Shown here: piece by piece, positions 1,527-17,026 of the stretch | Layout: each line of letters begins with the position of its first letter | How positions within the stretch are numbered: position 1 is the stretch's first letter | Translations under genes and position numbers: made by a program | Assembly (NCBI GenBank): GCA_001784275.1 | Contig: MFQB01000012.1 | Coordinates: 1 to 33,353, forward strand | Length of the DNA stretch: 33,353 bases | Direction of reading: 5' to 3' | Origin: Candidatus Magasanikbacteria bacterium RIFCSPHIGHO2_02_FULL_47_14 | GTDB lineage: Bacteria > Patescibacteriota > Patescibacteriia > Magasanikbacterales > UBA922 | The notes under the pieces: generated by a model | Databases searched by the model: none | What the model saw: only the letters and a program-made list of their open reading frames with translations | What the model was told of the DNA's origin: nothing

Positions 1527-2867
1527 TCATTTCCCTTTTTTGCCCGCGTCACCTTTTGGAAAAAAATTTGCCGTTACTTTCGCTGAGGCTGAATCGGAAG
1601 GCTTCTTTTTTCCAAAAAACATAAAACTATATACAAAGCCAATGGCAAGGATCGATACAAGTGGCACCCCCCACTTCTTTAGATCAATAAAAGAAAAGAG
1701 AGAAAATGTATCTGCGTCGGATGAAACGATGGTTCCCTGAGATAAAAGTTGCGCTGAAACACTATAATCGCCACTCGGTAAAGACGAGTCAAGAACTATT
1801 GTTCTTTCGATAGTCTCTTCACCCTGAGAAAGGGTATATGGAAAATGTTCTTCCCATACTATCGAGTCGTCTTCATTAACCAAAAGTAACTCAACAACCA
1901 GAGGAATTTGCTGTTGATTTGAGGGTATATTTCCTGCATGTGTCAACCTTATAGTAGTCTGAGCAACCCCCTGTCTCTTTCGTACTTGTTGAGGTACCAT
2001 GATATCTATAGACAATAAAGACTGCGCTACGTCAGAACGGACAACCTCAGCATATTCGAGGTCAGTATCAAAAATATTTTGGGTAACAGGATCAGTCGCG
2101 GTAACTTTAACGACATAACGACCCGGGGCTAAACCATAAGGGAAACGGTATACCCACTCACCATCGCCATCCGAGTTAACTGTTTCTTGCACAAGACCTT
2201 GATCAATGTTGATAGCAACCAATGCATATGGTAACTCACTATGCCCGCGTACCACAGGTCTATCATCACGCAGAAGCGACGTGGATGAAATCTTATTATC
2301 CAAATCAGTCAGTATCGATGTCTGTGGCCTCTCACCTGAGATATCTTGAGTTGTTGAACCCGCTTCATTTTTGTTTGTCTCAAACTCAGACTCGGCAGTG
2401 AATAGATACCGTGTCTGTGGACCTGGAACAACTGGTACATTTTGACCGTACGAAAGTATAGAAACTTCTTTTGGGGCAAAAAATGCCTCTGTCTCAACTT
2501 TTGAAGAAAATACAATCTCTGCAACAAGAGTATCGACATTAACTCCACCCAGTGCAGCAACGCTCCATTCAATTATGCCATTGTTTTGATCAATGTTGGG
2601 TTCCCGAACAAAAACAGTAAACGGGGGGTAAAAACGAATATCTTCAACATTAAGAGAACTCGTAGAAAAGGTAATTGTTCCTTGGACAGTGTCAATACGA
2701 AAGTCTCCAACTTTGAGCCATATCTGGGCTGGCGCTGGTTGTTTATCAAGACTGTACACCGCCGTAAGTGGCGAAATATACAAGGCCGCATCGCGAGCGA
2801 ATGCTGCGCTTGGGAGAAAAAAATAACTAAGAAATAATAAAAAAAGAAATAATAAAAAAAATCTCAT
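1527..2867 (-). CDS. Secreted, C-terminally membrane-anchored surface protein with a cohesin-like N-terminal domain and an Ig-like middle domain
   Basis: 446 aa with an ATG start. Signal peptide MRFFLLFLFLLFLSYFFLPSAAFA. The beta-rich segment at aa ~27-140 has a cohesin-like pattern (FSTSSLNVEDIRF ... NNGIIEWSVAALGG ... LVAEIVFS). GDGEWVYRFPYGLAPGRYVVKVTATD is Ig-like. There is a C-terminal TM followed by a KKKP stop-transfer. Only 3 nt separate it from trmD. Confidence 0.8.
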   Translation of the reverse strand: MRFFLLFLFLLFLSYFFLPSAAFARDAALYISPLTAVYSLDKQPAPAQIWLKVGDFRIDTVQGTITFSTSSLNVEDIRFYPPFTVFVREPNIDQNNGIIEWSVAALGGVNVDTLVAEIVFSSKVETEAFFAPKEVSILSYGQNVPVVPGPQTRYLFTAESEFETNKNEAGSTTQDISGERPQTSILTDLDNKISSTSLLRDDRPVVRGHSELPYALVAINIDQGLVQETVNSDGDGEWVYRFPYGLAPGRYVVKVTATDPVTQNIFDTDLEYAEVVRSDVAQSLLSIDIMVPQQVRKRQGVAQTTIRLTHAGNIPSNQQQIPLVVELLLVNEDDSIVWEEHFPYTLSQGEETIERTIVLDSSLPSGDYSVSAQLLSQGTIVSSDADTFSLFSFIDLKKWGVPLVSILAIGFVYSFMFFGKKKPSDSASAKVTANFFPKGDAGKKGK

Positions 2868-2902
2868 ATGTAGCTGAATAGATCTCTAAAAAGAGTAACA
2901 CG

Positions 2903-2931
2903 AGTATAGCATGTGATTTCATAAATGAAAA
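2903..2931 (-). promoter_or_regulatory. Candidate extended -10 promoter for the surface-protein/trmD unit
   Basis: Minus strand reads TTTTCA-N17-TATACT, with TGC immediately upstream of the -10 (aTGCTATACT). It lies ~35 nt upstream of the ATG at 2867. Confidence 0.3.
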
Positions 2932-2958
2932 CCACCCCGTATACGGGGTGGTTTTTTA
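2927..2958 (-). terminator. Intrinsic terminator (bidirectional shape) after the 377-aa surface protein gene
   Basis: 9-bp GC-rich stem ACCACCCCG / CGGGGTGGT (2931-2939 / 2944-2952) with a TATA loop. It is flanked by an A-run and a T-run and starts 11 nt downstream of the stop at 2969. Confidence 0.8.
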
Positions 2959-2968
2959 TATGTAATTT

Positions 2969-4102
2969 TTATTGGATATCCGGACCGTCTTCGTATGTTT
3001 CACTATCTGAGATGACCACAATTCGATCAAGTCGATATCCAAGTCTTTCAAACACTGCCTGATTCGTTACGTGTGATTTCTTTCCATCTACCAACCGATA
3101 TACTTTAGCGGAATTTGCATATTTAACCAATGTTCCATTCGGGTGGCTGTCGGAAACAGTAATCTCACCAGCTGACACGTACTTATCGAGCAGTGAGTCA
3201 GCTATATCTTCAACCCATTCCCATTTGTACCCAAGCGTGGCAAAGAGTTGTTCAGACGTTATCCAGTGTTTGTTGCCATTCAGTAAAAGGTATACTTTCG
3301 GATCGTTCACTGTTTTAACCAATGCGCCATATTTTGGATCATACTTGGAACCCCATGGCATAAAGCCGAGAGCATCTGCTGGTATTTTACTCAGCTCTGC
3401 TTCTGTCGTAATTTTTACATCGTTCCACGAGCTAAAGTAGCTAAAGAAAACACGCGGATTATTAAATGGACGTTTTGTACAAGAAAGAGTCACATAATAA
3501 ACAGAACGAGATCCGTTTGTTTTGTAGGCCATTCTTGTATCGAGTGGGCATGACTCTGACTGTTGACCAATAAGCAAACTGAGGTCCTTTTCATCTATGA
3601 CGCCATCTTTGTTAATATCTTCAGATACTTCATCTAAACTTGCAGGCACTTGTACAGGTGGAGTCACCTGACCTGCTGATACCAACTGAATGGAGCCGGT
3701 ATAAACAGTAGTACTCTTACCGGTCGAAGAATCACGGAACTTTACGTAAACCGTCTTAGTTCCATCTCCCGGTTCGAGGGTCCAGTCGAATTCTCCGTCA
3801 TATGGTTGCCAAGCTGCATTACTGAAATCTGCTCTATTTGACACTGCCATTTGATCAGCTGAGGCTTGTGGAACGTTTAAAGAAACGCTGGTGTTGCCGG
3901 TTGTCGCCGCACCTTTATTGATAACGACCACAAGCGCTGCACCAGGAGTAGAAGGTGATACGGTTGGTGCCGGAGATCCGCCTCCACCACCACCATATCC
4001 AAACGCTTGTTGGATCTGCCAGAACGATAAGAAAAATGCCGAGACGAGTATTGCCCCGACCAACGCAGCTCTAAAAGAGAGCACTTTTTGTATCACAACC
4101 AT
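2969..4102 (-). CDS. N-terminally anchored surface protein with a Gly/Pro/Ser/Thr linker, an Ig-like domain, a dockerin/EF-hand-like Ca2+ loop and C-terminal repeats
   Basis: 377 aa with an ATG start. It has an N-terminal TM, then GGGGGGSPAPTVSPSTPG. The segment INKGAATTGNTSVSLNV...KTVYVKFRD is a beta-sandwich type. DINKDGVIDEKD matches the DxNxDGxIDxxD loop (about 3584-3619). Repeated KVYxLxxGxKxxxTxxxxFxxLGY units sit near the C-terminus. Confidence 0.8.
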   Translation of the reverse strand: MVVIQKVLSFRAALVGAILVSAFFLSFWQIQQAFGYGGGGGGSPAPTVSPSTPGAALVVVINKGAATTGNTSVSLNVPQASADQMAVSNRADFSNAAWQPYDGEFDWTLEPGDGTKTVYVKFRDSSTGKSTTVYTGSIQLVSAGQVTPPVQVPASLDEVSEDINKDGVIDEKDLSLLIGQQSESCPLDTRMAYKTNGSRSVYYVTLSCTKRPFNNPRVFFSYFSSWNDVKITTEAELSKIPADALGFMPWGSKYDPKYGALVKTVNDPKVYLLLNGNKHWITSEQLFATLGYKWEWVEDIADSLLDKYVSAGEITVSDSHPNGTLVKYANSAKVYRLVDGKKSHVTNQAVFERLGYRLDRIVVISDSETYEDGPDIQ

Positions 4103-4147
4103 ATAGATGCGATTGAAAAAAGATGAATATTAATAGATGATGCGGTT

Positions 4148-4176
4148 ATCATAACACATTTTTTTTAATTTCACAA
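4148..4176 (-). promoter_or_regulatory. Candidate promoter for the 2969-4102 gene
   Basis: Minus strand reads TTGTGA (4171-4176), N17, then TATGAT (4148-4153). It lies ~45 nt upstream of the ATG at 4102. Confidence 0.4.
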
Positions 4177-4234
4177 TCATGTTGTCACACCTGTGGATAA
4201 GTATTTTCATTTAACCAAAAAATAGAAAGGATTG

Positions 4235-4243
4235 TGCTATAAG
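4235..4243 (+). promoter_or_regulatory. Candidate extended -10 element (TGCTATAAG) for the plus-strand GT-C operon
   Basis: TGC at 4235-4237 is followed by TATAAG at 4238-4243, ~48 nt upstream of the ATG at 4291. The -35 is weak. Confidence 0.3.
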
Positions 4244-4290
4244 ATTTTTTCTTTTAAAATGAACACGTCAGATAGTCTCGAATCAAAAAT

Positions 4291-5823
4291 ATGAATTATC
4301 GTAAAAAATTCTTTTTAATCACTTGTGCCTTTATATTACTTTGGGCTGGCATAACCAGAGTGTACAAATTGGACGAACAATCATGGTGGATGGACGAAGG
4401 CTATTCGGTAAATGCAGCACTTTCTACCATAGAAAAAGGATACCCGCTTTTACCGTCCGGGCTAGCGTACAACCAGCATATAGTCTATACGTATTTTCTT
4501 GCCGGCTCAATAAAAATTTTTGGCCTTTCAGAATGGAGCACCCGGGCTCCATCTGTTCTGGCGAGTATGCTAACTCTGCCGATCATTTTTTTCTTTACTA
4601 AAAAAATGATCGGCCCACGTGTCGCCTATCTTGCCACACTATTGGCATCTTTTTCTTACTGGGAAATTGCATGGGCAAGACAGGCACGATTCTATGCACT
4701 TTTTCAACTTACGTTTTGGGCTGCACTTTTTTTCTTCTGGAACGCTGTCACTTCTCGAAAAAAGATAGACTTTTTGTGGGCAGGTTTCTTTTCTTGTCTT
4801 ACCTTTTTTCTTCATCCTCTCGGCATTTTTTTGATTCCAATATACGTCGCCACTATCATAGTCACGCTGCTGAATATGCAAGGCGTCTCACTTCGTATGT
4901 GGTGGAGAAAAAACTGGCCCAGTATCGCTACCATCTCGCTGCTTCTTGCAGTAACAGGCATCTTCTTTTATAGACCAATATACGAAACATTTCGCGAGGT
5001 ATCGGTCCATCGTTTATTCTATTTACCGAAATATCTATCTTTTTTCCGAAACGGTACGCCGGGAGTTGCACTTCTTGCCGTGCTCTCCCTGCTCTTTCCT
5101 TTTGCCCATGACAAAAGACAGTCGCCAAGTCTGAACCCTGTATTGTATCTTTGGACAATTTTTCTCATTCCGTTCACCGGACTATCCTTTTTTGTATTCC
5201 TTCTTCAATACAGGTATGTTTTTATTATCCTCCCCGCACTTTTTATCTTAAGTGCTTTTTCGTTGATATCAATCTATGACTGGCTCGCAAACCGACATCA
5301 CCCGGTATACCGACTGGTCTATATCGGCGTAGTCCTGGTGTATTTTCTTGTATCACCTGAATTTCAAGTAACACCCACACCACAGTATGCACTCGAATCC
5401 GATAGACCCAACACCAAAGGATTCATTTCCTATACCCCGCAACCAAATTGGCAGGGTGCATATGACTATATCTTAAAAAATAAACGACAAGATGATATAC
5501 TTATCTCTGCGCAACCGGTCTTCACCTATATATACACCGGCGAACCGGGTCAGTGGATTTTTTATACCTTAACGAAAAAACCGGAGCGAGGCCGACCGCC
5601 AAAACCCGACGAACGTGATCCATACGTAGGGGCGAAAACGATAGTGACGAAAGAGAACCTCATGCAGACGATACTCAATAAACACGGATTTGTTGTCCTC
5701 GACTCGTTTGCGCGCGATGGCAGAATACCGACGGATATACTTACATACATAGAAAAAAAGTTGGTACTGCGTTATACGAATACATTTAATCGTTGGTCCA
5801 CTATATGGGTATATGAATTTTAG
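4291..5823 (+). CDS. GT-C fold membrane glycosyltransferase (ArnT / PMT, GT39/GT83-like)
   Basis: 510 aa, polytopic membrane protein. The first extracytoplasmic loop carries the acidic DE motif typical of ArnT/PMT enzymes (WWMDEGYSVNAAL). There is a C-terminal soluble domain of ~140 aa. Confidence 0.8.
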   Translation: MNYRKKFFLITCAFILLWAGITRVYKLDEQSWWMDEGYSVNAALSTIEKGYPLLPSGLAYNQHIVYTYFLAGSIKIFGLSEWSTRAPSVLASMLTLPIIFFFTKKMIGPRVAYLATLLASFSYWEIAWARQARFYALFQLTFWAALFFFWNAVTSRKKIDFLWAGFFSCLTFFLHPLGIFLIPIYVATIIVTLLNMQGVSLRMWWRKNWPSIATISLLLAVTGIFFYRPIYETFREVSVHRLFYLPKYLSFFRNGTPGVALLAVLSLLFPFAHDKRQSPSLNPVLYLWTIFLIPFTGLSFFVFLLQYRYVFIILPALFILSAFSLISIYDWLANRHHPVYRLVYIGVVLVYFLVSPEFQVTPTPQYALESDRPNTKGFISYTPQPNWQGAYDYILKNKRQDDILISAQPVFTYIYTGEPGQWIFYTLTKKPERGRPPKPDERDPYVGAKTIVTKENLMQTILNKHGFVVLDSFARDGRIPTDILTYIEKKLVLRYTNTFNRWSTIWVYEF

Positions 5824-5845
5824 TTTTTACTTTTTGTCCTAACCT

Positions 5846-8242
5846 ATGCCGACGGCACACAAAACGTCTCTTCCCGAGCTCATAAAACACAACAGGCTTC
5901 TCTCGGTCGCTTTAAGCATTACTGTCATTTTTTTTATATCTTTTTTCTTGTTTCATTTATATAAAGCTTTTTCTTACAGGACAGTGGAACAGACAGACTT
6001 TCATAACAACTCTTTTAAGAAAAAAGCCGGACAAAATTTATTTATTAATGAAAACGCCGGTGACTCTACAAAATTTCTTGAAACAATCATCATTAATGAC
6101 GTCCACACAAAAAAAATAATTGGATCACCCATTTCTTTTATCTGGAAACCGAAGCACTTTATCTTCAGCAAACAATTTGACCAAACTATCGACGTGTCAG
6201 TAACACTTCAAAGTAATACCCCGTGGTATCTGGAAGTCAGCCCTCGGTCGACGAAGACTACTTCTGGCACCACGACACCGCAACGATACCAGCTCTACTA
6301 CCCGGGGTTAAAAAATTATTCTCTCGCTGCGTCATTTTCTGATGTATCAGTCTATGCAAAAGAAGCAAAATCTTGGACCCCAAAAGATACACTCGTTGAA
6401 TGGGTCAAAGAAAATGTTCCACCTTTTTCTCAAATCCGTCTTTTGGAAGGAATCCGCCCGTTTGGTGTAGCTGACTTTGCCAATCCAATGATCGGCTTCG
6501 ACCCTAATACAGTTAAAACGTCGTTCCCGGGCTCGATACGCGGGCCACATTCGTTCTATGTATTTTTGAATAACGAAGTAGATATTGCCTTCAAAAAACA
6601 AGATTTAAATTGGTTTAAAGGTGAGGACACAGCGGCTATTGTGATACGAGATGTGTACGGTGAAGAAATATTGAGACAAGCTCTTGAGGATGATGGGGTT
6701 GACGCAGCGAAACCAGACATGTTTCGTCTACCTCAGCAGTATCAAATTCTCAAACCCCTCCCCTATACAGGTATCTACCGTATTGACTTTGAAGATATAA
6801 ACGAAACTTTGCAAAAAGACTGGGCTATCACCTCATTTGTTATCAACACGAATAAAATCGTCTTTGACGGGTCGCCTATATTTACCTCACCAATCTCCTT
6901 ATATACACAAATTCACCAGAAAAAAACCATTTCTGTGCGGCGAATGAAATCCGACGCTCCTGAGGTGATCTCTTTCACCGGTACAAGCACGACGACTGTT
7001 GACCTCTCAAAAATCGGAACCGCCGGACAAAAAGACATCGAGCTCGAGGCAGGGTCGTATACTATTCAACCAGCAGACTATACGGAACTACGCGGTTCAT
7101 TCTTTTCGTTCGATGAAGGTCATTACTTCGACCCTTTTATCTATTATCTGACGGACAGAAAAGACGCAGACATAGTCATAGGAAATTATACATTTATCAA
7201 AAATCCGATTGACCCGGATTGGATTACTGTAAAAAAATCTTTTAAATCCTCAACATTAATGCCGGAAAGTGGAAAATTTACCGAATCCGTCGAATTTTTG
7301 CTCTCTTCCCCTCTCATGGAAAAAAATCAAATTCTACTTGAGGAGCTGCTAACGAAAAACTACTTTCAACTGGAAGAGCAAGATAACGTGGTGTTGTGGG
7401 GAAAGAAAAAAATAAATGAAAATTTTTTTGACAGTATGACGAGCGCAGAACTTGATACTCTCGAGCCGCACCAACTCATTGAATTTAACTCACTTGAGGA
7501 ACTCTCCAAAAAAGTAGAGGGGATAAACCCTGGCATAGAAGCAGGGTCAGATATAACAACGGTCCTTAGCTTGCCACTTCGGGGAACACACATCTTTCTT
7601 GTATACACAACCGATATTATTGATCTCACGATCCATAAAGAAGATCTCAACCGAGAAGAGGGGGCGGATATGGCTTCTGTAGCGATATCAAACTTCGGAA
7701 GTGACAAGGTGCTTTGCGAGACAACAATTGCCGACGACGGAAACATAAGCTCAGATAAACGTACCGGGGCACGGGAAGGCCGGCTGCTTTGTGAAAACAT
7801 CCCGGAAGGAATCTACACAGTCACAGTATCCGGAGAAGACTTCCTTATCAAAAAAATGAAAATTAACACAAATAAAATTATGCTAAAAAACAAACTTTTT
7901 GTTCACGACACGGGAACGGATTACACCATCTACACTCAACCGGTGGTTCCAAATAGTATCGACATGCGACACTGGGGTCCTCAACAAAAACTGGCCGTGA
8001 CCCTTCCCACTCAAGAAGAACGCCTCCTTACTCTCAACGATGGTGAAAGAAAGAAAATTGAACTACCGTCGGGTCTTTCATCCTTTAGATTCTCTCCCGG
8101 AAGCAACCTCCTCATTGGCGGACACTTCTCTTTCAACGAACAATACCTGTTTGATCTTCCGATACTCCAAGGCAAGAACTTTGTGCTCACTCGCCTTACC
8201 CCGCCAGAAACACTCCAGTCGTTTAAGTTGGAAGTAAGATGA
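5846..8242 (+). CDS. Type II-anchored large extracytoplasmic protein of unknown function with an internal ~200-aa duplication
   Basis: 798 aa with a single N-terminal TM (LLSVALSITVIFFISFFLF) and a Thr/Ser-rich stretch SPRSTKTTSGTTTPQ. Residues ~229-430 and ~577-771 align with each other. I recognise no catalytic motif. Confidence 0.85.
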   Translation: MPTAHKTSLPELIKHNRLLSVALSITVIFFISFFLFHLYKAFSYRTVEQTDFHNNSFKKKAGQNLFINENAGDSTKFLETIIINDVHTKKIIGSPISFIWKPKHFIFSKQFDQTIDVSVTLQSNTPWYLEVSPRSTKTTSGTTTPQRYQLYYPGLKNYSLAASFSDVSVYAKEAKSWTPKDTLVEWVKENVPPFSQIRLLEGIRPFGVADFANPMIGFDPNTVKTSFPGSIRGPHSFYVFLNNEVDIAFKKQDLNWFKGEDTAAIVIRDVYGEEILRQALEDDGVDAAKPDMFRLPQQYQILKPLPYTGIYRIDFEDINETLQKDWAITSFVINTNKIVFDGSPIFTSPISLYTQIHQKKTISVRRMKSDAPEVISFTGTSTTTVDLSKIGTAGQKDIELEAGSYTIQPADYTELRGSFFSFDEGHYFDPFIYYLTDRKDADIVIGNYTFIKNPIDPDWITVKKSFKSSTLMPESGKFTESVEFLLSSPLMEKNQILLEELLTKNYFQLEEQDNVVLWGKKKINENFFDSMTSAELDTLEPHQLIEFNSLEELSKKVEGINPGIEAGSDITTVLSLPLRGTHIFLVYTTDIIDLTIHKEDLNREEGADMASVAISNFGSDKVLCETTIADDGNISSDKRTGAREGRLLCENIPEGIYTVTVSGEDFLIKKMKINTNKIMLKNKLFVHDTGTDYTIYTQPVVPNSIDMRHWGPQQKLAVTLPTQEERLLTLNDGERKKIELPSGLSSFRFSPGSNLLIGGHFSFNEQYLFDLPILQGKNFVLTRLTPPETLQSFKLEVR

Positions 8243-10641
8243 AGTATACCAGGATAGTACAGCGCCTCATCTTCTTTTTCTTTTTTTTGTATGTGTTATT
8301 TTATTTGTCGGTTATTGTTTTTCCGGATGTGCGAAACTTTGTTGGGTTTTATACCCCTCTTTCCTTAGTCCATTTTTTTACACTGGTCTTCTGCGTCTCC
8401 ATTGTTTTTTTTCTAAAGACAAAAATATACCATCACCCAAACAAACGACCTAAACACGTGAACCGATGGATAGTGGCAGGCTATAAAATTATTGCTGCAG
8501 CCTTTCACACATCGGCATTACGGCGCGTTGTCACCATCCTACTTTTTATAGCAACCCCGATTGCTCTTTTACCGGCTCAAGCCCTTCTTGACCAAAAAAA
8601 GTGGGCTGGGATCAATGCAGATGTGTTGCAATCTATCTTGCAGGCGCAAAAACCAATATTTTTTGTTTTCTTTTTTTTCTTAACCGCTCTCTGGATACTT
8701 GTTACAAGCAAATATAGCAAAAAATATCTTCCTTTTGCTCAACACGTCTTTTTTATCACGCTTATATTGTTCGAGTATCTTTTTATATCTCAAAAATTCT
8801 TTAACACAACGTACCACATCACCTTCTATCCATTTATTAAACATCTTCTTATATTTATATCGTCTGTAAGTGGCGGGATAAGTGTACTCCATACGTTTGA
8901 CACTTCATACGCGGACTTAAAAAAAGAGAAGCAATCGGAACTGGGTGCCCAGCTGTACTGTATAAAAAAATTCCGCGCTACCTATCCACGCCTTCAAAAT
9001 ATACCCGCTATCGGTCGAGTGACCGAAAACATATACAAACAAGGGTGGTTTGTGACTGGGTTTCTCGGACTCTTTTTGGTAACGTTCTTCTTTTTAACCG
9101 CACCACTCTCACAACGATTCTTGACTGGAGACGAATTTCATATCTTTTCAGTGGCCCAAGGGTTACTCAACTCGACCACGTGTGTAGCCTGGAACCAACT
9201 CTACGACACTCCCGGATACACATATACATCGCAGTGTATTTTATCCGGTATAGTGGCATTCTTCTTTTTTATAACCCAACATGTTTCCATTTTTGTTGCC
9301 AAATTACCCTCTCTTATCGTTTCAGTAGCAAATATCTTCCTCATTTACTCCCTTCTTAGCAAGATAGGGACAAAACAAATAGCTCTTTTTTCGGTTCTAT
9401 TTTACGTTCTGAACCCATTATTTATTTACGAATCAGCCTTTATACGGGGATATATTTATATCGTATTTTTGCTGTTGCTACTTACGCACTTCGTTTTTAA
9501 AATGATTCAGACAACAAACCAAAAAAAAGTATTACTTTTTATATTGCTACAAGGAATAACGCTTTTTACTGGATACAAAATTCATCTCACATTTATTACA
9601 GTTGCTCCGTTTGTTTGTGCGTTATGGATTTGGAAACTCCACGATTACGCAAAAAAAACAAACAGGATGCACCTATTTTCCCTCATCGTAACCTATATCG
9701 GCCTAGCTGGCGTTTGGTTCGCAATACGTTTTTTTGAGCAAAAAAACTGGGCAACGGCAGGTGCCATTTCGCTCCAGTGGAAAACTTTTGATGTCTCTTT
9801 TTTTACATTCCCACCGACTGTCACAAAAATCATTTTCGGTATCGGGATTGCGGGTTTCTTATGCTTTGCATTTAGGCTTTATAAGACAAAAAAGAAAATT
9901 CCGGCGCCGTTCGTTATGGCACTGGTTTTGATTGGTATGTTTGTGAGTACTCACATTATCTACGCGGTATTTGCAGACACAAAAAACTTGATTCTTAGAT
10001 ACATGACCAACATCATTGTGCTCAATGTGATTCTCCTGCCCTTCTTTTTATTTTTGATCATTCGACGCCTCTTAATCCAGAGAATAGCACCCGCAGTGAT
10101 AATTTTACTATTTATGGGAGTACCATATGTTTCCTTTTGGACAAGTGACCGGATGAATAGAGGATGGGATAACACATACAATATTATCGACATGTATTCG
10201 CTTGAAGAATTCACATCTCCTTACCGAGCGAAAGAAAAATGGGGCGCCCCATATACAAAAATAAAAGAGCACATAGAACCAAGTGACACAGTTGCTATCA
10301 TTACAGAGTTAGTACATGATCCAACGATACAGATACTCACGGAACATGCTGCTCAAATTGAACTATTTTGCCTTCGCTTTTCTCCATTCCAATTTATAAA
10401 TAACAGTATTTACTGTGCAGAAGAAGATTACTATTCGACAGAACTTCGCCCGATAAAATACGAGGCCATATCGCGCATACTTGAATCTCATGACAAGACA
10501 TTCATTGTGTTTCCCAGTAGAAAAAATTATAAATTCATGACGCAGACACAGTACATAAATGACCTATTCGGCTTTCAAAAAATATCCGGAACCGGTTTTG
10601 ATACAACATATATCGATGTGTATCTTTATGAAAGACGATAA
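8239..10641 (+). CDS. GT-C fold membrane glycosyltransferase with an extra N-terminal ~7-TM module
   Basis: 800 aa. Its ATG overlaps the upstream stop (ATGA at 8239-8242). The ArnT/PMT-like core starts near aa ~270 with the loop motif RFLTGDEFHIFSVAQGLL, followed by many TM helices and a C-terminal soluble domain. Confidence 0.75.
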   Translation: MKYTRIVQRLIFFFFFLYVLFYLSVIVFPDVRNFVGFYTPLSLVHFFTLVFCVSIVFFLKTKIYHHPNKRPKHVNRWIVAGYKIIAAAFHTSALRRVVTILLFIATPIALLPAQALLDQKKWAGINADVLQSILQAQKPIFFVFFFFLTALWILVTSKYSKKYLPFAQHVFFITLILFEYLFISQKFFNTTYHITFYPFIKHLLIFISSVSGGISVLHTFDTSYADLKKEKQSELGAQLYCIKKFRATYPRLQNIPAIGRVTENIYKQGWFVTGFLGLFLVTFFFLTAPLSQRFLTGDEFHIFSVAQGLLNSTTCVAWNQLYDTPGYTYTSQCILSGIVAFFFFITQHVSIFVAKLPSLIVSVANIFLIYSLLSKIGTKQIALFSVLFYVLNPLFIYESAFIRGYIYIVFLLLLLTHFVFKMIQTTNQKKVLLFILLQGITLFTGYKIHLTFITVAPFVCALWIWKLHDYAKKTNRMHLFSLIVTYIGLAGVWFAIRFFEQKNWATAGAISLQWKTFDVSFFTFPPTVTKIIFGIGIAGFLCFAFRLYKTKKKIPAPFVMALVLIGMFVSTHIIYAVFADTKNLILRYMTNIIVLNVILLPFFLFLIIRRLLIQRIAPAVIILLFMGVPYVSFWTSDRMNRGWDNTYNIIDMYSLEEFTSPYRAKEKWGAPYTKIKEHIEPSDTVAIITELVHDPTIQILTEHAAQIELFCLRFSPFQFINNSIYCAEEDYYSTELRPIKYEAISRILESHDKTFIVFPSRKNYKFMTQTQYINDLFGFQKISGTGFDTTYIDVYLYERR

Positions 10642-11959
10642 GTCGAAAAGCAAATTTTCTTCGATGAGAGAAAAAAATGCTGTCCTTTTCCTTGCTAAAA
10701 TTTTTGATGGCGCAAAACAAGTGCCCCATCTTCAATATTTTATTGGCAACGGTTTTTGGATGACCCTAAAAGAAGGGGCAACGACACTCCTTGGCGTGTT
10801 TGTCTCAGTAGCCCTTGCTCGCCTACTGACAAAAGAAACTTACGGACAATATCAACTCGTCATCACCATTATCAGTCTGTTTTCAGTTTTTTCAATCCCT
10901 GGACTAAACTCGTCACTAACCCGGTCAGTCGCACGTGGATACGACGGAAACTATAGAAATAGTGTGCACATAAGTTTTTGGTGGTCACTTATTGCCGTTC
11001 CTCTTCTCTCAAGTCTCGCGGGGTATTTTTACATTATAGGAAATCAAGATGTAGCGGCGAGCTTCTTGATTTCTGCGATTTTTTTCCCCTTCTTTTATGC
11101 CCCAAATACATGGAATGCATTCTTGGTTGGAAAACAAAAATTTAACCTGCTAACACGCTGGAATATCATTTCCGTTCTTTTCCAAAGTTTTCTTCTCGTA
11201 ACAATGGCCTGGATTTTCAAAAATAATCTTATTGTTTTGGTCTTCAGCTATTTTTTTTCATATACTATTTTCAACTACATATGGTACAAAAAAAGTTTTG
11301 CGCTCATCCAAACAGACAAAAAAAACGAGGAAGACATAGATTATGGTTTTTTCCTTACCAAACTATCGACACTGGAAATCGTCGCGTCATACATAGATAA
11401 AGTGCTCGTCGGACTTCTTCTCGGGCCTGAGTCGCTCGCAATTTACACCATCGTTTCATTGATTGCCGTAAAAATAAAAGACCTATCAAAAGTGGTTGGC
11501 CAACTTATCTTTCCAAAATTTTCAACAAGCAAAAAAACCTTTGTAGACATTCTTTATGCATACCAAAGACCGTGGCTTTTATTTACCTTGAGCATGGTCG
11601 CAATTTCAGGACTATATTACGTCAGTATACCCACTCTTATACGGTTACTTTTCAGTGAACAATATACACCATACACATACCTTGCGCAGTGGTTTACGAT
11701 AACCGTTGTATTGTCGTTCCCTCTTGCGGTTTTAGCATATTATGTACTGGCAAAAAAAGAAAAAAAAATCATAATTCTTTCGCGTCCGATTTTTGCTTTT
11801 ATACGAATAGTACTGAACGCTTTTGCTATTTATTTTTTCGGTCTGATTGGGGCCGTGGTAGCATTTAACTTATCCATGCTCATTCGTCTATTCTTTTTTC
11901 TTTTCGGAATCAAATACACTCAACCAAAAAAAGGCAAAGATGAGTGCCTTAGGATATAA
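10628..11959 (+). CDS. Wzx-like oligosaccharide/polysaccharide flippase (MOP superfamily)
   Basis: Polytopic protein with a Wzx-type N-terminus (VFVSVALARLLTKETYGQYQLVITIISLFSVFSIPGLNSSLTRSVARG). The tracked ORF starts at 10559, 83 nt inside the upstream gene. ATG 10628 (14-nt overlap) or ATG 10664 are more plausible starts. Confidence 0.75.
   Translation: MKDDKSKSKFSSMREKNAVLFLAKIFDGAKQVPHLQYFIGNGFWMTLKEGATTLLGVFVSVALARLLTKETYGQYQLVITIISLFSVFSIPGLNSSLTRSVARGYDGNYRNSVHISFWWSLIAVPLLSSLAGYFYIIGNQDVAASFLISAIFFPFFYAPNTWNAFLVGKQKFNLLTRWNIISVLFQSFLLVTMAWIFKNNLIVLVFSYFFSYTIFNYIWYKKSFALIQTDKKNEEDIDYGFFLTKLSTLEIVASYIDKVLVGLLLGPESLAIYTIVSLIAVKIKDLSKVVGQLIFPKFSTSKKTFVDILYAYQRPWLLFTLSMVAISGLYYVSIPTLIRLLFSEQYTPYTYLAQWFTITVVLSFPLAVLAYYVLAKKEKKIIILSRPIFAFIRIVLNAFAIYFFGLIGAVVAFNLSMLIRLFFFLFGIKYTQPKKGKDECLRI
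11924..11950 (-). terminator. Weak candidate intrinsic terminator of the 19-gene minus-strand operon
   Basis: Minus strand reads AAGGCA-ctcatctt-TGCCTT followed by a T-run (7 T in total). The hairpin begins in the TAA stop of the 11949-13037 gene and lies inside the last codons of the convergent Wzx gene. Confidence 0.35.
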
Positions 11960-13037
11960 ACTCATGAAATGGATAGATATCTTCTCTGTCCAAAATTTGA
12001 ACGAGGAGGCTGACCCCCCACAAAAAAAGACATGTCCCGTGAATATCCGGCTCATTTCTCCCCCGACTTACTGGAGCATCATAATACCACTTTCCTGACG
12101 AACCAGGCAAAAAGGAAAATCCACCGATACTCGGATAGTAATGCGCTCGATATCGTCGAAGCCGGTCCCAGGCAAATGTATTCAGTTCCTCGTTTCGATA
12201 CTCCGTTCCAACCACTTTTGTACAATACGTCAGTACAAACGTTATATTAAAGTGATCACATGCGTGAGTGTCATGTTGTGCGGACAGGACCGTGTCCAAT
12301 ATACGATCTGCATGGGCAAAATTCATTCTTTCCGCAACCAACAAACCCGTTAGGATCTTCATGGCTCCATTTATTTTTTGAGAAAGAGATGGTGTGCCCA
12401 TGTACCAAAATCCGTCTGAGTGTTGTAGTCGATTAACCCAGCGTATCGCTGCGTCTATCAAAGTTTCTTTGTTTTCAGATAAACTACATGCAAGAAAAAA
12501 TAAAAGGTGACTAAAGTGACTTCCCGCTGCCCATGGTTTATGCCAATCAAGGGCCGATAGATATCTCTCTATGTCTTGTTCAGATTCCACAAGCGACGTG
12601 ATTGCATACCGAGGCATATGGGAAAAAAGTGTCATCGCAGAAAATGCCTGGCGTGTTTCAGCAAGGTGTACTTGCTTACCTCTGTGAATGTTGCCTGTCT
12701 TGAAGATATACCACAAACGGTACGGAACGGAAGACCACTCAATCCACTGATCTATAAAAAAACCAGTTGGCTTCTGAAAAGATTGTATAAAATTACATGC
12801 CTCCTCCACTTCTTGTTCATACTCCTTTCTTAACCCAAGTGTGTATATAATCTTTAAAAAGAAAACAGAGTTACCAAGGCCCCATTGCGCTTTTTCTCTG
12901 AGATAGTCACCGGTGAGTGAATAGTGGTATCTCCCCGGTCGGCCAGGCACTTTTAACTTCTGCAAAAATTGAGGAACAGCATGAGGAAGCGCAAGTAGCC
13001 ATTGTTGAATTTCTTCGATGTCTCGTCCGTCAGTCAT
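11949..13037 (-). CDS. Hypothetical protein, possibly alpha/alpha-toroid (prenyltransferase / terpene-cyclase-like or glycan hydrolase/lyase-like repeats)
   Basis: 362 aa with an ATG start. It has recurring Q/YxxxxG(F/G)(F/W) motifs (QKPTGFFIDQW, QHSDGFWYMG, YYPSIGGFSF) and no TM segment. The family call is tentative. Confidence 0.7.
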   Translation of the reverse strand: MTDGRDIEEIQQWLLALPHAVPQFLQKLKVPGRPGRYHYSLTGDYLREKAQWGLGNSVFFLKIIYTLGLRKEYEQEVEEACNFIQSFQKPTGFFIDQWIEWSSVPYRLWYIFKTGNIHRGKQVHLAETRQAFSAMTLFSHMPRYAITSLVESEQDIERYLSALDWHKPWAAGSHFSHLLFFLACSLSENKETLIDAAIRWVNRLQHSDGFWYMGTPSLSQKINGAMKILTGLLVAERMNFAHADRILDTVLSAQHDTHACDHFNITFVLTYCTKVVGTEYRNEELNTFAWDRLRRYRAHYYPSIGGFSFLPGSSGKWYYDAPVSRGRNEPDIHGTCLFLWGVSLLVQILDREDIYPFHEFIS

Positions 13038-13530
13038 ACGAGAGTTCTCTCAAAACTCGGGCCGGGACCCCGACAGCCAGTGAATCCGGTGGCAAATCTT
13101 TCGTGACAACTGCACCAGCACCTACAACAGTATTTTTGCCAATAGAAACACCTGGGTTAACGATCACACCAGAACCCAACCAGACTCCATCATCAATCCT
13201 GACTGGCAGCGCAATATGCTTTCTGACAGAGGCGGGGTGTTCATAGTCCAGCCCCCCGGTATTAATAATACATCCAGGAGAAATACGTACACGACTTCCT
13301 ATGTAAATATCCGCCATCGCGTTAAGCACAACACCATGATTGATTCGTGTCGCATCCCCTACAAAAATATGGTGAGGATGATACACATAGATATTGCCCG
13401 AGACACTGGATAGGCGCCCCAAATTGCCAAAAAGACACCTCCATTTCCATGTCGTTCCGAGTTTATGCAGACCTCGAAGCCATTTAAATATCAGTAAAAA
13501 AAACCGGTGAAAAATCGATACATCTTTCAT
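13030..13530 (-). CDS. Hexapeptide-repeat (LbH) O-acetyltransferase, WcaF / maltose-acetyltransferase-like
   Basis: Left-handed beta-helix repeats (IGSRVRISPGCIINTGG ... IDDGVWLGSGVIVNPGVSIGKNTVVGAGAVVTKDLP). The tracked start at 13557 is TTG. ATG at 13530 lies 1 nt after the upstream stop and is preferred. Confidence 0.85.
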   Translation of the reverse strand: MKDVSIFHRFFLLIFKWLRGLHKLGTTWKWRCLFGNLGRLSSVSGNIYVYHPHHIFVGDATRINHGVVLNAMADIYIGSRVRISPGCIINTGGLDYEHPASVRKHIALPVRIDDGVWLGSGVIVNPGVSIGKNTVVGAGAVVTKDLPPDSLAVGVPARVLRELSYD

Positions 13531-13531
13531 A

Positions 13532-14194
13532 TCACTTTTTATTATGCGCAATAACAATTATCTTCCGGCTAAAAAATGAATGGCGGAGCAATCTAAAAAA
13601 AATGCCCCCTGTCGGGATAATCTCGACGTCAAAAAAGTATTTTTTGAATAACTTTTTTGCTTTAGAGACAGTAAACTTATTTACGTGAGTTGGATCATCG
13701 TGTAGTCGTTGAAATCTTCCAAAAAAAACATCAATGATGTCGTACACACGCTTGACTGGATAGTTGGGAGTAACAAAAAAACAAACACCGTCTGGATAGA
13801 GAATACGATGAATCTCTTGCATGTAAAAATCAATGTCAGAAATCGGTATATGCTCGATGACTTGGTCTGAGTGAATAAGGTGAAACGTATCTCGGTCAAA
13901 TGGTAACGGTTCCAACGGTTTCACTAAAAGCATATTCTTCCATCCTTCTCTCTGGAGACGTTGGACTCTTGTATCTGATACTTCTACGCCATAGATGTTT
14001 TCTTTTTTAAACCAAGCAGTAAAAAACGGTACATATTTTCCATTACCAAAACCATAGTCAAGACACCTCCGCTCCTGATCTGAAGACAATAAAGGAAGGA
14101 CATTCTCACGAAATGCCGCCTCCCAGGCAGTGGGTACTACACCTTTTTGTGCCCGATCACGGGCATACTGTTCAAAATCTTGAGACATACTCAT
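13532..14194 (-). CDS. Class I SAM-dependent methyltransferase
   Basis: Motif I is CLDYGFGNGKY, with post-I/II elements (VEVSD ... FHLIHSDQVIEHI). The tracked start at 14239 is GTG. In-frame ATGs lie at 14215, 14194 and 14188, so the start is uncertain. Confidence 0.8.
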   Translation of the reverse strand: MSMSQDFEQYARDRAQKGVVPTAWEAAFRENVLPLLSSDQERRCLDYGFGNGKYVPFFTAWFKKENIYGVEVSDTRVQRLQREGWKNMLLVKPLEPLPFDRDTFHLIHSDQVIEHIPISDIDFYMQEIHRILYPDGVCFFVTPNYPVKRVYDIIDVFFGRFQRLHDDPTHVNKFTVSKAKKLFKKYFFDVEIIPTGGIFFRLLRHSFFSRKIIVIAHNKK

Positions 14195-15263
14195 CACTAG
14201 ATAGGATTCCTTCATGCAAAAGAATATCGCGTATGGCACGAAATGTAAAGTCGTATGTATACCCGAGTCGAACTAATTGTTCCCGTGTATTGACGATCGT
14301 GTTGGTTGCAAGCAATATCTTTTTTGCCAAGTCGTCTGGATCTGGCTTTGCAACAAACCCTCCAACACGCCAGACATGTGATACAGCCGCCGGGCTATCG
14401 TCACAGCAGACAACAGGTATATTGCAGGCCGCTGCCTCCAATATAATACGCGGACCCATCTCACGATAGTTCGTTGTCGTCAATAAACACCGAGATTGGT
14501 TATACAAGCGAGCAACTTCTTCCGGCGACTGCCAGCCCGCGAATGTTGTAACGTGGGGGTATTCTCGCTTTAGTCTTGCACCGGGCATCACCAATGTCTT
14601 TCCCGCCCGTGCGGTAGCACGTATTGCCAACTCCGGACGCTTCCAATATCCCTCGGAACCACGAGATGGATAGATACAGTCCCACCGTTTCGGCTCGTCT
14701 ATATTTGGTCGAAATATTTTTTCATTCGCGGGCTTTGGAGCGACAATAATGCGACTCTGATCGATATATATTCTCGCTGCAAGCTGCTTTTTTTGAAAAT
14801 CATGATCAACTAAGTGATAATCAACGCACCGATGATACCTCCCAACAGACTTTTTGAGACTTCTATTCGAATACGAAATTTTTAAGTAATCTTTCAATGT
14901 ATAGGAAATAGCTGAACTATAATATAATAACTTTATACACCTCATGGATGAAACTCCTTGTAAAAAATCATCATATGGAAAACTGTGATGATTTAAAAAC
15001 AGAACGTCCGGTTTTTCCAAAGCAAGATATTGTAGAATTTCCTTTTTTGTGCGACAAAAATAATAGCTGAGCGATTGGGTGTGGGACTGATAACTGCCGT
15101 AACAAAAATCAGAGAGCGTGACGATACGCACGTCAAAAAAATCAGACAAACGGCGCGCGGCATATACCGTAGAGTCTTCAACGGCCAGCATCGCCCCCCC
15201 ACCCTCTGGCACCAACTTTTTTTGCCAATGCCAAATAAAAAAAATCTTTTTTTTCATCTCCAT
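14172..15263 (-). CDS. GT-B fold glycosyltransferase (GT4-like)
   Basis: 363 aa with an ATG start. The C-terminal half has the E-x7-E type segment NYREMGPRIILEAAACNIPVVCCD. Confidence 0.8.
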   Translation of the reverse strand: MEMKKKIFFIWHWQKKLVPEGGGAMLAVEDSTVYAARRLSDFFDVRIVTLSDFCYGSYQSHTQSLSYYFCRTKKEILQYLALEKPDVLFLNHHSFPYDDFLQGVSSMRCIKLLYYSSAISYTLKDYLKISYSNRSLKKSVGRYHRCVDYHLVDHDFQKKQLAARIYIDQSRIIVAPKPANEKIFRPNIDEPKRWDCIYPSRGSEGYWKRPELAIRATARAGKTLVMPGARLKREYPHVTTFAGWQSPEEVARLYNQSRCLLTTTNYREMGPRIILEAAACNIPVVCCDDSPAAVSHVWRVGGFVAKPDPDDLAKKILLATNTIVNTREQLVRLGYTYDFTFRAIRDILLHEGILSSDEYVSRF

Positions 15264-15268
15264 AGGTA

Positions 15269-15976
15269 TTACTTTTGCGCTATCACAAGATAGAGGCTGG
15301 GATATGCAGTATACACTCCGCGTTTTTGTTCTTCATATACTTCGGAACACAGTATATTGTTCGATGACCGGAAAAAAAAACTTTTGAATAACTTCGTAAC
15401 AAAAAATAAACAAAGAAGCGGCCAATACCAGATTTTTTTATATAGCATATTCATAAGAGTCAAGTCAAAGTCACCAACTTGGTATACTGAAACGGAAGAA
15501 AAATTGCGAAACAAAAATTTCAAAGAATGAAATCCAAAACGAAAATAGTCCGGGAGACTATGTAACCGATACATAAATGGAACAACCACGATAGCATAAC
15601 CGTCTTGTTTCAACGTACGTTGCATTTCGTCTACAGCTCGCTGTGGTTCCGGAAGATGTTCAAGAGAGGCGACAGACAAAAAATTATTTACTGTCCCGTC
15701 TCCAAAAGGCATGTTCTGCATGTCAACAAACACCTCATACGGCGGCACAATATTGCTGGCTATGTATGTGAGCCGAGGGTTGACTTTCCTGTAGGTCGCA
15801 TTCGTTTTTGGTGATGAACCAAGATCAACAACTGACCCGCTGAGCTGTGATAGCAACTGTGCTAATATCGTATCTGTGAGGAGGCGCGGTATAGAGCTTC
15901 TATAAAATAAAATCTTCCAGGCATTTCGAAAAAGAAAATAAAAAGATAAAATCGGTTTATGCAATTCAAGAGACAT
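15269..15976 (-). CDS. SAM-dependent methyltransferase (Methyltransf_11-like, degenerate motif I)
   Basis: 235 aa. Motifs seen: VVDLGSSPKTN ... MPFGDGTVNNFLSVASLEHLPEPQRAVDEMQRTLKQDGYAIVVVP. Confidence 0.7.
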   Translation of the reverse strand: MSLELHKPILSFYFLFRNAWKILFYRSSIPRLLTDTILAQLLSQLSGSVVDLGSSPKTNATYRKVNPRLTYIASNIVPPYEVFVDMQNMPFGDGTVNNFLSVASLEHLPEPQRAVDEMQRTLKQDGYAIVVVPFMYRLHSLPDYFRFGFHSLKFLFRNFSSVSVYQVGDFDLTLMNMLYKKIWYWPLLCLFFVTKLFKSFFFRSSNNILCSEVYEEQKRGVYTAYPSLYLVIAQK

Positions 15977-15983
15977 ATCAAAT

Positions 15984-17012
15984 TCAGGTAATAAGTTGGC
16001 TCATTTTCTTAAGAAAATAAATATTTTTTTCTAAATATTCAGCTCGTTTTTTTGATAAAAGAGTCCGAACTGTATTCTCGTCGCCTTGAAGCTCTGCAAA
16101 CAATGACAGCAACACTTCTGGGGTTATATCTTGTAACGCGACAGAAAACAAAGACGGATACCCGACCATATCAACAAACGCATCGCACTTAATGTTATAC
16201 GAGATATTTAAAAATGGTTTCCCTGCGCCAAGAGCGAAAATCCCCATATGCCCACGTGATCCGACCAAATAATCCATTTGGCTATATGCCCCCATCAGCT
16301 GTTGTGCAGAAGAAGAAAACAATAAAGGGATATCAACACGCTGTCGAAGGCTCAAATAGGAGTCAGTAACTTGTTTTGTATGTGCGATGAGATAGCATGC
16401 ATACTCTGTATGTAACACGGATATAGTTGCGACAAGTGTACGAATATAATTTTGAGCAGCCAGAGTCGAAAGACGAGACAGTGGCACCAACACAAAACCA
16501 ATCTTTTTCTTCTCTGTGAAAGCTAATTCAAATGGAATAGGTGACAAAAACATGGATGGACATGGAACAAGGTCCGTCGGTATTCCTTTGGAAGCAAGCT
16601 CCATTTGGCTCATCACGTCTCGAACTGAACTCAAAGTTACATAATCGTGAAGATGTTGAATTTTTTTCATCATTCTTTTATATCTTTTTTCGTCTTTTGC
16701 CTCGTAATTCAAACCAACACCATATAAAAATATAGGCTTTTTTATACCTTTAAGTGCCCGATATGAAAGCCGCAAGAGTGTCTTTTTTGCATATGGCCAA
16801 TACAGACCGCCTCCCCCAACAACCACACAATCAAAATCTCTATTGACACGGGCAATTGTTGCAGAATCAAAATCTTGATATGCAATAAAAAAATCTTCAA
16901 AGGCGGCTTGTGTATCTATATGCTCCCGTATCAGATATTTAATACCCTCGGCAGATCCGACGTCACCCAGGTTATTATCGTTCGCATAACAGTGAAAAAT
17001 GTTTAACGCCAT
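15984..17012 (-). CDS. Polysaccharide pyruvyl transferase (CsaB/WcaK/EpsO family)
   Basis: 342 aa. The N-terminal NLGDVGSAEGI and the VVVGGGGLYWP motif are characteristic of the PS_pyruv_trans family. Confidence 0.75.
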   Translation of the reverse strand: MALNIFHCYANDNNLGDVGSAEGIKYLIREHIDTQAAFEDFFIAYQDFDSATIARVNRDFDCVVVGGGGLYWPYAKKTLLRLSYRALKGIKKPIFLYGVGLNYEAKDEKRYKRMMKKIQHLHDYVTLSSVRDVMSQMELASKGIPTDLVPCPSMFLSPIPFELAFTEKKKIGFVLVPLSRLSTLAAQNYIRTLVATISVLHTEYACYLIAHTKQVTDSYLSLRQRVDIPLLFSSSAQQLMGAYSQMDYLVGSRGHMGIFALGAGKPFLNISYNIKCDAFVDMVGYPSLFSVALQDITPEVLLSLFAELQGDENTVRTLLSKKRAEYLEKNIYFLKKMSQLIT

Positions 17013-17026
17013 AAGACCGGTGGCTA

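Follow-up and report, generated by a model that had tools for sequence, protein, structure and literature searches.

A membrane-anchored ectoprotein family linked to GT-C glycosyltransferases and Wzx-type flippases: a putative accessory part of a surface-glycan pathway in Candidatus Magasanikbacteria

In the PSP (cwps) pathway of Lactococcus lactis/cremoris, WpsA/B prime C55-P, WpsC-F extend the chain and WpsG, a Wzx protein, flips it; the GT-C enzyme WpsI then polymerises with the Wzz-like WpsH, and a further GT-C enzyme, WpsJ, ligates (PMC9574508, PMC10821137). This machinery is the closest characterised relative of a locus that we analysed in a 33 353-nt stretch of DNA (contig MFQB01000012.1; hereafter the window) from Candidatus Magasanikbacteria, an uncultured groundwater bacterium of the Candidate Phyla Radiation (CPR); the two are likened by composition. 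The locus consists of a four-gene cassette, coding for two GT-C glycosyltransferases, a 798-aa membrane-anchored ectoprotein and a Wzx-type flippase, and of a long glycan operon that converges on it. We read it as a multi-component extracytoplasmic glycosylation system in which the ectoprotein would assist the GT-C/Wzx machinery as an accessory subunit that binds glycan and has no catalytic role, and we give this reading about an even chance of being right.

As in Lactococcus, there is a GT2 enzyme predicted to prime polyprenyl monophosphate, soluble glycosyltransferases, a Wzx, two outer GT-Cs and the gene of an anchored ectoprotein among them. An earlier statement in the original prediction, that no characterised pathway has such an arrangement, was thus overstated, since wpsG-H-I-J of Lactococcus code for a Wzx, a Wzz-like ectoprotein and two GT-Cs, with the GT2 enzyme WpsA as primer (PMC9574508, PMC10821137). 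The differences are several. WpsH is described with two transmembrane (TM) helices and a Wzz-like extracellular loop, whereas the window ectoprotein, all-beta and duplicated, has a single TM segment and no match to Wzz; also, the gene order is another one, the second GT-C of the window is extended at its N terminus by several TM segments, a small activator like WpsB/GacJ was not identified, and the host belongs to the CPR. The logic of the locus is known; the new part is the ectoprotein family in the accessory position.

The locus follows the three-component logic of periplasmic glycosylation (GtrA/GtrB/Gtr*, ArnC/ArnE-F/ArnT and GacI/J/K/L; PMC11127046, PMC8035078, PMC10821137), in which a flippase and a GT-C transferase are likewise encoded with a polyprenyl-phosphate sugar synthase whose C terminus carries TM segments, but the window has two GT-Cs, an attached 19-gene cytoplasmic operon and a large ectoprotein that none of these systems has. 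The window flippase is Wzx-type, not GtrA-type; the Wzx type is shared with GacK and WpsG. The AglD/AglR/AglS system of Haloferax volcanii combines a membrane GT2 that makes Dol-P-mannose, a Wzx-like delivery step and a PMT_2-like GT-C that adds mannose outside; one sugar is added to an N-glycan already present on the S-layer protein, and we know of no ectoprotein partner there. This parallel is relevant because most of the ectoprotein homologues that we retrieved from genomes are archaeal.

The features of the locus are as follows.

4291-5823, plus strand: GT-C1, 510 aa, predicted PMT_2-type GT-C glycosyltransferase
5846-8242, plus strand: ectoprotein, 798 aa, founding member of an unannotated family
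8239-10641, plus strand: GT-C2, 800 aa, predicted second, paralogous GT-C with an N-terminal multi-TM extension
10628-11959, plus strand: predicted Wzx-type MOP flippase, 443 aa from the ATG at 10628 (longest open reading frame from 10559)
28884-29987, minus strand: predicted ArnC/GtrB/DPM1-type polyprenyl-phosphate glycosyltransferase, first gene of the convergent operon
27724-28881, minus strand: GT4 glycosyltransferase, directly after the ArnC-like gene
11949-27736, minus strand: the other 17 genes of the convergent operon, characterised by Pfam scans and a hydropathy scan

All four cassette proteins are named 'hypothetical protein' in the NCBI records (OGH68547-OGH68550). The tight packing of the four plus-strand genes, described in the original prediction, was read in the sequence: a 22-nt gap parts GT-C1 from the ectoprotein gene (5823 to 5846), the ectoprotein stop and the GT-C2 start overlap in ATGA (8239-8242), and the Wzx stop (11959) lies past the stop (11949) of the last gene of the convergent operon (11949-13037), an 11-bp overlap. 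The minus-strand block 11949-29987 holds the 19 open reading frames expected. The Wzx start does overlap the GT-C2 stop, by 14 nt, if the ATG at 10628 is taken, giving a protein of 443 aa in agreement with the NCBI annotation; the longest-frame start at 10559 is not the one to be used.

The ectoprotein had been described as anchored, duplicated and without recognisable motif, and so it proved to be: it has one TM segment and an internal duplication (residues 213-429 against 561-770, 28% identity, E 9e-13), and no match was found in Pfam, NCBIfam or PDB sequences. A word-indexed protein search returned 4-5 relatives; the family became visible by exhaustive hidden Markov model (HMM) search, with 913 cluster representatives at E <= 1e-3 and 202 at E <= 1e-30. 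Pfam scanning of 89 members gave nothing meaningful. Judged from these profile searches the family is real though unannotated, and it appears distinct from Wzz, from BcsB and from any annotated family. A typical member has 470-530 aa, one TM segment and one module; across the family the module number runs from 1 to 4, and the two-module form of ~800 aa was found in loci sharing the cassette organisation of the window. Genome matches came from CPR bacteria (Magasanikbacteria, WWE3), Nanoarchaeota/Woesearchaeota, Aenigmatarchaeota and Dehalococcoidales, as well as from Methanomethylovorans, Methanococcoides, Methanoperedens and Methanofastidiosum. Searching the literature for this family in CPR or DPANN glycosylation, we found nothing specific.

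Some archaeal genomes code for larger proteins of 1024-1208 aa that carry an ectoprotein-type module (at about residues 150-560) together with hydrophobic segments: L014 10881-14426, L016 11070-14633, L017 4843-8469 and 11139-14270, and L018 11199-14273. The PF07752 S-layer domain was present in all three of these proteins that were scanned. Their genes adjoin a single-module ectoprotein gene and a GT-C gene, sometimes as a duplicated set; the genomes are Methanosarcinales except that of L016, which is labelled only 'uncultured archaeon'.

Gene neighbourhoods link the ectoprotein to glycosylation genes. Loci were retrieved through the ectoprotein alone, and 25 were informative (the window and 24 others). 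A GT-C gene lies within three genes of the ectoprotein gene in 25 of 25; in 20 of them it is directly adjacent or parted only by Wzx, mostly immediately upstream on the same strand, and a Wzx-type gene is present in 14. The GT-C HMM used for this count was iterated on the same loci; Pfam checks on samples and PDB-profile results support the calls. The full order GT-C, ectoprotein, GT-C was seen in L001, L006 and L024 and, broken by inserted genes, in L002; the order ectoprotein, GT-C, Wzx is kept in L025 and L026. Most of the loci with these orders (L001, L002, L006, L024-L026) converge on soluble glycosyltransferase genes, as in the window. Since the neighbourhood recurs in 24 other loci, the arrangement is more than chance.

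Two gene fusions tie the same components together. Protein P0099 joins a Polysacc_synt domain (residues 9-440) to a complete ectoprotein unit (residues 416-889), and in L022, from Aenigmatarchaeota, a minus-strand gene (6000-8903) codes for a 967-aa protein with Polysacc_synt (4-310) followed by a GT-C (513-962), one gene away from an ectoprotein homologue. With GT-C present throughout, Wzx in more than half of the loci and the P0099 fusion, the linkage to GT-C and Wzx genes that the original prediction demanded of the 798-aa protein's homologues was borne out.

In L002 the genes standing between GT-C1 and the ectoprotein gene (2465-5904) are toxin-antitoxin-like: Fic, HTH and HEPN/nucleotidyltransferase. 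Upstream of the ectoprotein gene the cassette can thus be interrupted; the ectoprotein gene and GT-C2 stay coupled. Immediately downstream of single-module ectoprotein genes of DPANN, WWE3 and Dehalococcoidales we observed a conserved protein that has 3-4 TM segments and is 124-153 aa long (L008 11345-11719; L009 10897-11277; L010 10945-11325; L013 6721-7104; L020 10933-11325; L023 10909-11370); two of these six were scanned and had no significant Pfam match. It may be a further component of the system. In the DPANN loci a second small TM protein comes next, and the one that was scanned, in L009, matches the N-terminal part of DUF1616. A contig labelled Gammaproteobacteria (L011, CAZLKE010000017.1) has the gene order of the WWE3 locus L008 (GT-C ... 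GT-C, Wzx, ectoprotein, small TM protein); the label of this metagenome-assembled contig may come from mis-binning.

The window ectoprotein starts with a single N-terminal TM anchor (residues 17-42, 5894-5971); TM segments of window proteins are strong hydrophobic segments counted in a crude hydropathy scan. An N-domain (residues 46-200, 5981-6445) and Module 1 (residues 213-470, 6482-7255) follow, then a helical and disordered linker and Module 2 (residues 561-798, 7526-8239). The AlphaFold2 model built on a 56-sequence alignment (pLDDT 88, pTM 0.73) consists of one helix, an all-beta N-domain and two copies of a two-domain beta module; a single module modelled alone gave pLDDT 86 and pTM 0.81. 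As to orientation, homologue P0002 has a long K/R-rich N-terminal tail, and in the fusion P0099 the anchor follows the complete Wzx moiety, Wzx proteins being generally taken as ending in the cytoplasm; both observations support a topology with the N terminus inside and the ectodomain outside.

A Foldseek search of the PDB with the full-length model gave long alignments of low TM-score to multi-domain beta proteins (Cry protoxins, phage tail proteins, EngBF). With one module the fold class became sharper, and no close relative was found in the PDB. The best matches, weak ones, fall in one fold class: tandem CBM22, CBM35, the BT0996-C carbohydrate-binding module (CBM) and the Ca-binding jelly roll of Tk-SP. 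Single-domain TM-scores were 0.52 (target-normalised) for BT0996-C and 0.44 for CBM35, and E-values in this group, CBM22 and Tk-SP included, ranged from 1e-3 to 3e-2. BcsB, domains of Cry protoxins and sugar-binding domains of GH2 enzymes belong to these best, though weak, matches too.

Eight polar residues, R232, K251, D253, N255, D261, D282, D283 and D325, are kept in both modules and are near-invariant across bacteria and archaea at ~20% identity. Such conservation argues for a binding or active site, and the Asp/Asn cluster is compatible with the ligand site or Ca2+ site of a jelly-roll CBM. The same residues could, on the other hand, make the ectoprotein an extracytoplasmic enzyme acting on the flipped or transferred glycan (for example a trimming transglycosylase, hydrolase or lyase, or a wall ligase) with an active site in each module. 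An Arg, a Lys, an Asn and five Asp near-invariant in both modules would suit this, as would the weak fold matches to the glucosyltransferase/GH-type enzyme 5x7o and to xanthan lyase 6f2p; several glycoside hydrolase and lyase families have jelly-roll folds. However, no significant sequence or fold match to a catalytic jelly-roll family appeared, the best single-domain matches are to non-catalytic CBMs and a Ca-binding jelly roll, and the Pfam scan of the 89 family members was empty. We rate an enzymatic role as clearly improbable.

The near-invariant residues bear as well on another explanation, that the ectoprotein is a dedicated acceptor, i.e. an anchored surface glycoprotein or S-layer-like protein to which the PMT_2-type enzymes on either side attach sugars, a substrate and not a subunit. 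Protein O-mannosyltransferases are indeed among the PMT_2 relatives (Pfam description), the 1024-1208-aa proteins of Methanosarcinales pair the module with an S-layer domain, and variation in the number of modules (1-4) is a trait of surface proteins. Also, a Haloferax DUF1616 protein is N-glycosylated (PMC8241124), and the DUF1616-N-like small protein of L009 is encoded two genes downstream of an ectoprotein homologue. The window protein has a Ser/Thr-rich loop of lower confidence at about residues 132-146; this loop is not conserved, though, homologues carrying a CxxC loop there. Residues near-invariant at such low identity would be expected of a binding or active site rather than of a passive substrate, the one-to-one pairing with GT-C genes and the translational coupling are typical of subunits, and a Wzx fused to a whole ectoprotein unit (P0099) would be hard to explain for a substrate. 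We think the acceptor explanation quite unlikely.

Among known accessory proteins, those of the Wzz/polysaccharide co-polymerase (PCP) class resemble the window ectoprotein in being anchored extracytoplasmic proteins encoded beside a polytopic polymerase and Wzx, and the variable module number could fit a ruler-like role of their kind. In PCPs the periplasmic domain is alpha-helical and flanked by two TM segments. Identity of the ectoprotein as a Wzz/PCP protein was rejected: it has one TM segment, an all-beta ectodomain and no Wzz Pfam match. A duplicated periplasmic jelly-roll carbohydrate-binding array, single-pass or appended, that guides the glycan at a membrane glycosyltransferase is what BcsB and the CBM domains of EmbA/B/C offer for comparison. 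In mycobacterial EmbA/B/C these domains are C-terminal and fused in cis to the GT-C; BcsB, built of CBD and flavodoxin-like repeats, has its anchor at the C terminus, unlike the window ectoprotein, and works with a GT2 synthase. The fold matches to BcsB were weak (E 3e-5 to 1e-2, TM-score 0.10-0.31), the BcsB Pfam match was lacking and the anchor of the ectoprotein is N-terminal, and BcsB identity was rejected as well.

Both large membrane enzymes of the cassette are, as far as their sequences tell, members of the GT-C superfamily and PMT_2/ArnT-like. GT-C1 matches Pfam PMT_2 (E 1.1e-11, 45.7 bits with a gathering cutoff of 26.1), as its original ArnT/PMT-like description had it. Its first-loop motif W33-M-D35-E36 (4387-4398) comes right after the first TM segment; D35 and Arg308 (5212-5214) are invariant or nearly so in relatives (alignments A4 and A6), with D35 conserved at >=90% across 21 family members. 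At least seven strong hydrophobic segments were counted in GT-C1, which has a soluble C-terminal domain after the last of them, and 15 in GT-C2.

GT-C2 alone stays below the PMT_2 threshold (20.5 bits, E 6e-4); it is identified as a GT-C because of its profile-profile match to GT-C1 and its match to A6, not because of the PMT_2 score. Aligned by hhalign, GT-C2 with its positional orthologues matches the GT-C1 family (99.4%, E 5.8e-21, 394 columns), residues 274-708 of GT-C2 pairing with residues 12-426 of GT-C1, G-D298-E299 with W-M-D-E and an 'RY' arginine with R308; residues 278-767 match the 21-member GT-C profile A6 with E 6e-15. The core thus delimited (residues 274-708, 9058-10362; D298-E299 at 9130-9135) is preceded by an extension of ~270 aa (8239-9048) with ~6 hydrophobic segments before core TM1. 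The original prediction of seven TM segments here holds as to the N-terminal multi-TM extension and not as to the number, six strong segments being counted. The extension is also present in the GT-C2 orthologues of L001, L002, L006 and L024, and the charged linker directly before the core is conserved in GT-C2, L002 and L006; GT-C2 orthologues lie downstream of the ectoprotein gene in L001, L002, L006, L024, L025 and L026. The extension might be a fused copy of the small 3-4-TM proteins encoded downstream of archaeal ectoprotein genes; compared with them by hhalign, it gave a probability of 29%.

None of the four cassette proteins had a match in the PDB when searched as a single sequence, and profiles of the small alignments A3 and A4 reached no solved GT-C structure. 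Only the 21-member profile A6, made of ectoprotein-adjacent GT-Cs, did so: STT3A (7.7e-14), AglB (3.7e-11), ArnT (1.3e-8) and Pmt1 (0.027). Its first-loop Asp aligned with the Asp of the STT3A stretch EFDPYF and its conserved Arg with an STT3A Arg; taken with the alignment of GT-C2 on GT-C1, this agrees with the acidic first-loop motif predicted for both enzymes. STT3, AglB and PglB are thus alike in that best solved-structure matches and aligned Asp and Arg point to them; unlike them, the ectoprotein-adjacent GT-Cs lack WWDxG, a motif that oligosaccharyltransferases carry in the soluble C-terminal domain, and are shorter (about 500-570 aa). The motif, searched as W[WFY]D[YFWN]G, was absent from both window GT-Cs and from all 39 related GT-Cs, and no STT3 Pfam match was found in the window GT-Cs or in the related GT-Cs scanned. 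Identity as an oligosaccharyltransferase (STT3/AglB/PglB) was rejected for the lack of both. No window protein matched the Wzy_C or EpsG models at E <= 0.1, and identity as an O-antigen ligase or Wzy-type polymerase was rejected too; two archaeal ectoprotein-adjacent GT-Cs had sub-threshold EpsG scores (24.7 and 23.4 bits, cutoff 30.1). Of the GT-C family assignments proposed for the pair, the PMT_2 match (GT-C1) and the GT-C1-family match (GT-C2) stood, while oligosaccharyltransferase and O-antigen ligase models were unmatched.

The fourth cassette protein is by family a predicted Wzx/MOP flippase: it matches Polysacc_synt (E 1.9e-19, 70.6 bits, cutoff 28.2), Polysacc_synt_3 (E 7e-17, 62 bits) and an NCBIfam MOP flippase model, and nine strong hydrophobic segments were counted in it by the crude scan, the family architecture having about 12 TM segments.

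Of the convergent operon, the first gene is the best-conserved neighbour of the cassette. Its product consists of a GT2 domain followed by two TM segments near the C terminus (at residues 280 and 312), and over its full length it matches the solved ArnC (E 7.7e-44), GtrB sll0501 (2.7e-29) and an archaeal DPMS (2e-16), matches that identify it as a putative polyprenyl-monophosphate sugar synthase; probably it makes the lipid-monophosphate sugar that the cassette uses. Orthologues with 42-53% identity were found in L001, L005 and L024, adjoining GT-C1 divergently in L001 and L005. The GT4 product of the next gene (Glycos_transf_1, 3.5e-34) is a candidate enzyme for the second sugar on the lipid-linked primer; it has orthologues with 39-40% identity in L002 and L024, next to the ArnC-like gene in L024. 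Synthase, Wzx and two GT-Cs stand in the same 26-kb block, and the same set recurs in L001, L005 and L024.

The other 17 genes include transferases of the GT1/GT4 and GT2 types, ~8 S-adenosylmethionine-dependent methyltransferases, a pyruvyl transferase, a hexapeptide acyltransferase, an AsnB-like amidotransferase and two proteins without a family match; the hydropathy scan predicted no TM segment in any of the 17. The last gene, 11949-13037 on the minus strand, has a sub-threshold match to a prenyltransferase alpha-alpha-toroid (E 0.003) and no other; the product of 24951-25883, also on the minus strand, has no family match at all.

Pfam scans revealed no initiating phosphoglycosyltransferase, Wzy_C or ABC exporter within the window. 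If the operon glycan is the Wzx substrate, it is probably built on polyprenyl monophosphate. One could also suppose a plain three- or four-component decoration: the ArnC-like enzyme would make a polyprenyl-phosphate monosaccharide, Wzx would flip it and each GT-C would add a single sugar to an existing polymer, the long operon serving a separate glycan and being linked by proximity only. Besides the three missing families, it is in line with this that the ArnC-like GT2 and one GT4 are the only genes co-conserved with the cassette across loci, and that there are precedents in GtrA/B/C and GacI/J/K/L (PMC11127046, PMC10821137). Yet the GT4 gene is conserved beside the ArnC-like gene, as WpsC follows WpsA, related loci likewise converge on soluble glycosyltransferase operons, and the ectoprotein would be left unexplained; moreover, Wzx-type flippases usually carry oligosaccharides. 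Simple decoration looks unlikely to us.

For the accessory-subunit reading we propose the following sequence of events. The ArnC/GtrB-like GT2 (28884-29987) would load a sugar onto polyprenyl monophosphate; the adjacent GT4 and other soluble transferases would lengthen the lipid-linked sugar, and those convergent-operon enzymes that transfer methyl, pyruvyl, acyl and amido groups would modify the glycan at the cytoplasmic face. The Wzx-type flippase would take the lipid-linked glycan outward. At the outer face the paralogous GT-C1 and GT-C2 would use the flipped glycan as donor, one of them elongating or polymerising it and the other ligating the product to an envelope acceptor, by analogy with WpsI and WpsJ. 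The ectoprotein, held by one helix with its N terminus inside, would use its two tandem jelly-roll CBM-like modules to keep the acceptor or the growing chain close to the GT-Cs or to present it there; its role would be that of a co-polymerase or acceptor-presenting protein, such as Wzz/WpsH, BcsB and the Emb CBM domains play elsewhere. The original prediction of one outer-face system gains from the ArnC/GtrB-type gene at the head of the operon, with orthologues beside GT-C1; from homologies we infer the flipping, the transfer steps and the role of the ectoprotein.

Several points weigh against this reading. 'CBM-like' is a statement on fold class, drawn from a model, and the fold matches are weak: the best E-value is 7e-4, TM-scores do not exceed 0.31 when normalised to the two-domain query, and the best target-normalised one is 0.52. 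For the invariant acidic cluster, catalysis or structural binding of Ca would be just as good an explanation. Contact of the ectoprotein with GT-C or Wzx is inferred from gene context, and the neighbourhood count used a GT-C HMM iterated on the very loci counted, a circularity that the checks with Pfam and PDB profiles lessen. By sequence, GT-C1 and GT-C2 are not separable in their roles. Finally, with no phosphoglycosyltransferase in the window, the donor could be a single polyprenyl-phosphate sugar, the product of the long operon being exported otherwise.

One could speculate further that the ectoprotein is an obligate, so far overlooked non-catalytic subunit of a prokaryotic GT-C/Wzx glycan-assembly machine, comparable to a co-polymerase or to the beta-sandwich subunits of the eukaryotic oligosaccharyltransferase, which CPR bacteria, DPANN archaea and methanogens would share through ancient inheritance or inter-domain transfer, and that the module number (1-4) sets or gauges product length or distance from the membrane. 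This extension is tentative, and we would sooner doubt it than assert it.

Little has been characterised of the envelopes of CPR bacteria and DPANN archaea, organisms that live attached to host cells; an ectoprotein genetically locked to GT-C and Wzx in CPR, DPANN and methanogens gives a handle on how their surface glycans are built. Prokaryotic GT-C enzymes are mostly regarded as working alone. If the ectoprotein is an accessory subunit, these enzymes would have a new class of partner, and Pfam/InterPro would gain a family of ~900 sequence clusters; if it is not, the lactococcal type of polyprenyl-monophosphate/Wzx/GT-C pathway still has a clear example here from the CPR. The ectoprotein is probably a new accessory part of a pathway of known kind.

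The glycan operon begins 21 nt past EF-G, directly 3′ of the genes for S12, S7 and EF-G (29987-33127, minus strand), the usual place of EF-Tu in bacteria; the operon may be co-transcribed with the str operon. A promoter and terminator scan of the locus was uninformative, promoter-like sites occurring at chance level. Divergent from the cassette, two minus-strand genes (2969-4102 and 1527-2867) code for secreted or anchored proteins, plausible as surface proteins or acceptors; as conserved acceptors they were rejected, having no homologues in related loci. In one of the two the signal or TM segment is followed by a run of Gly6 and a stretch rich in Ser/Thr/Pro; the other has a sub-threshold Big_13 match and a C-terminal hydrophobic segment.

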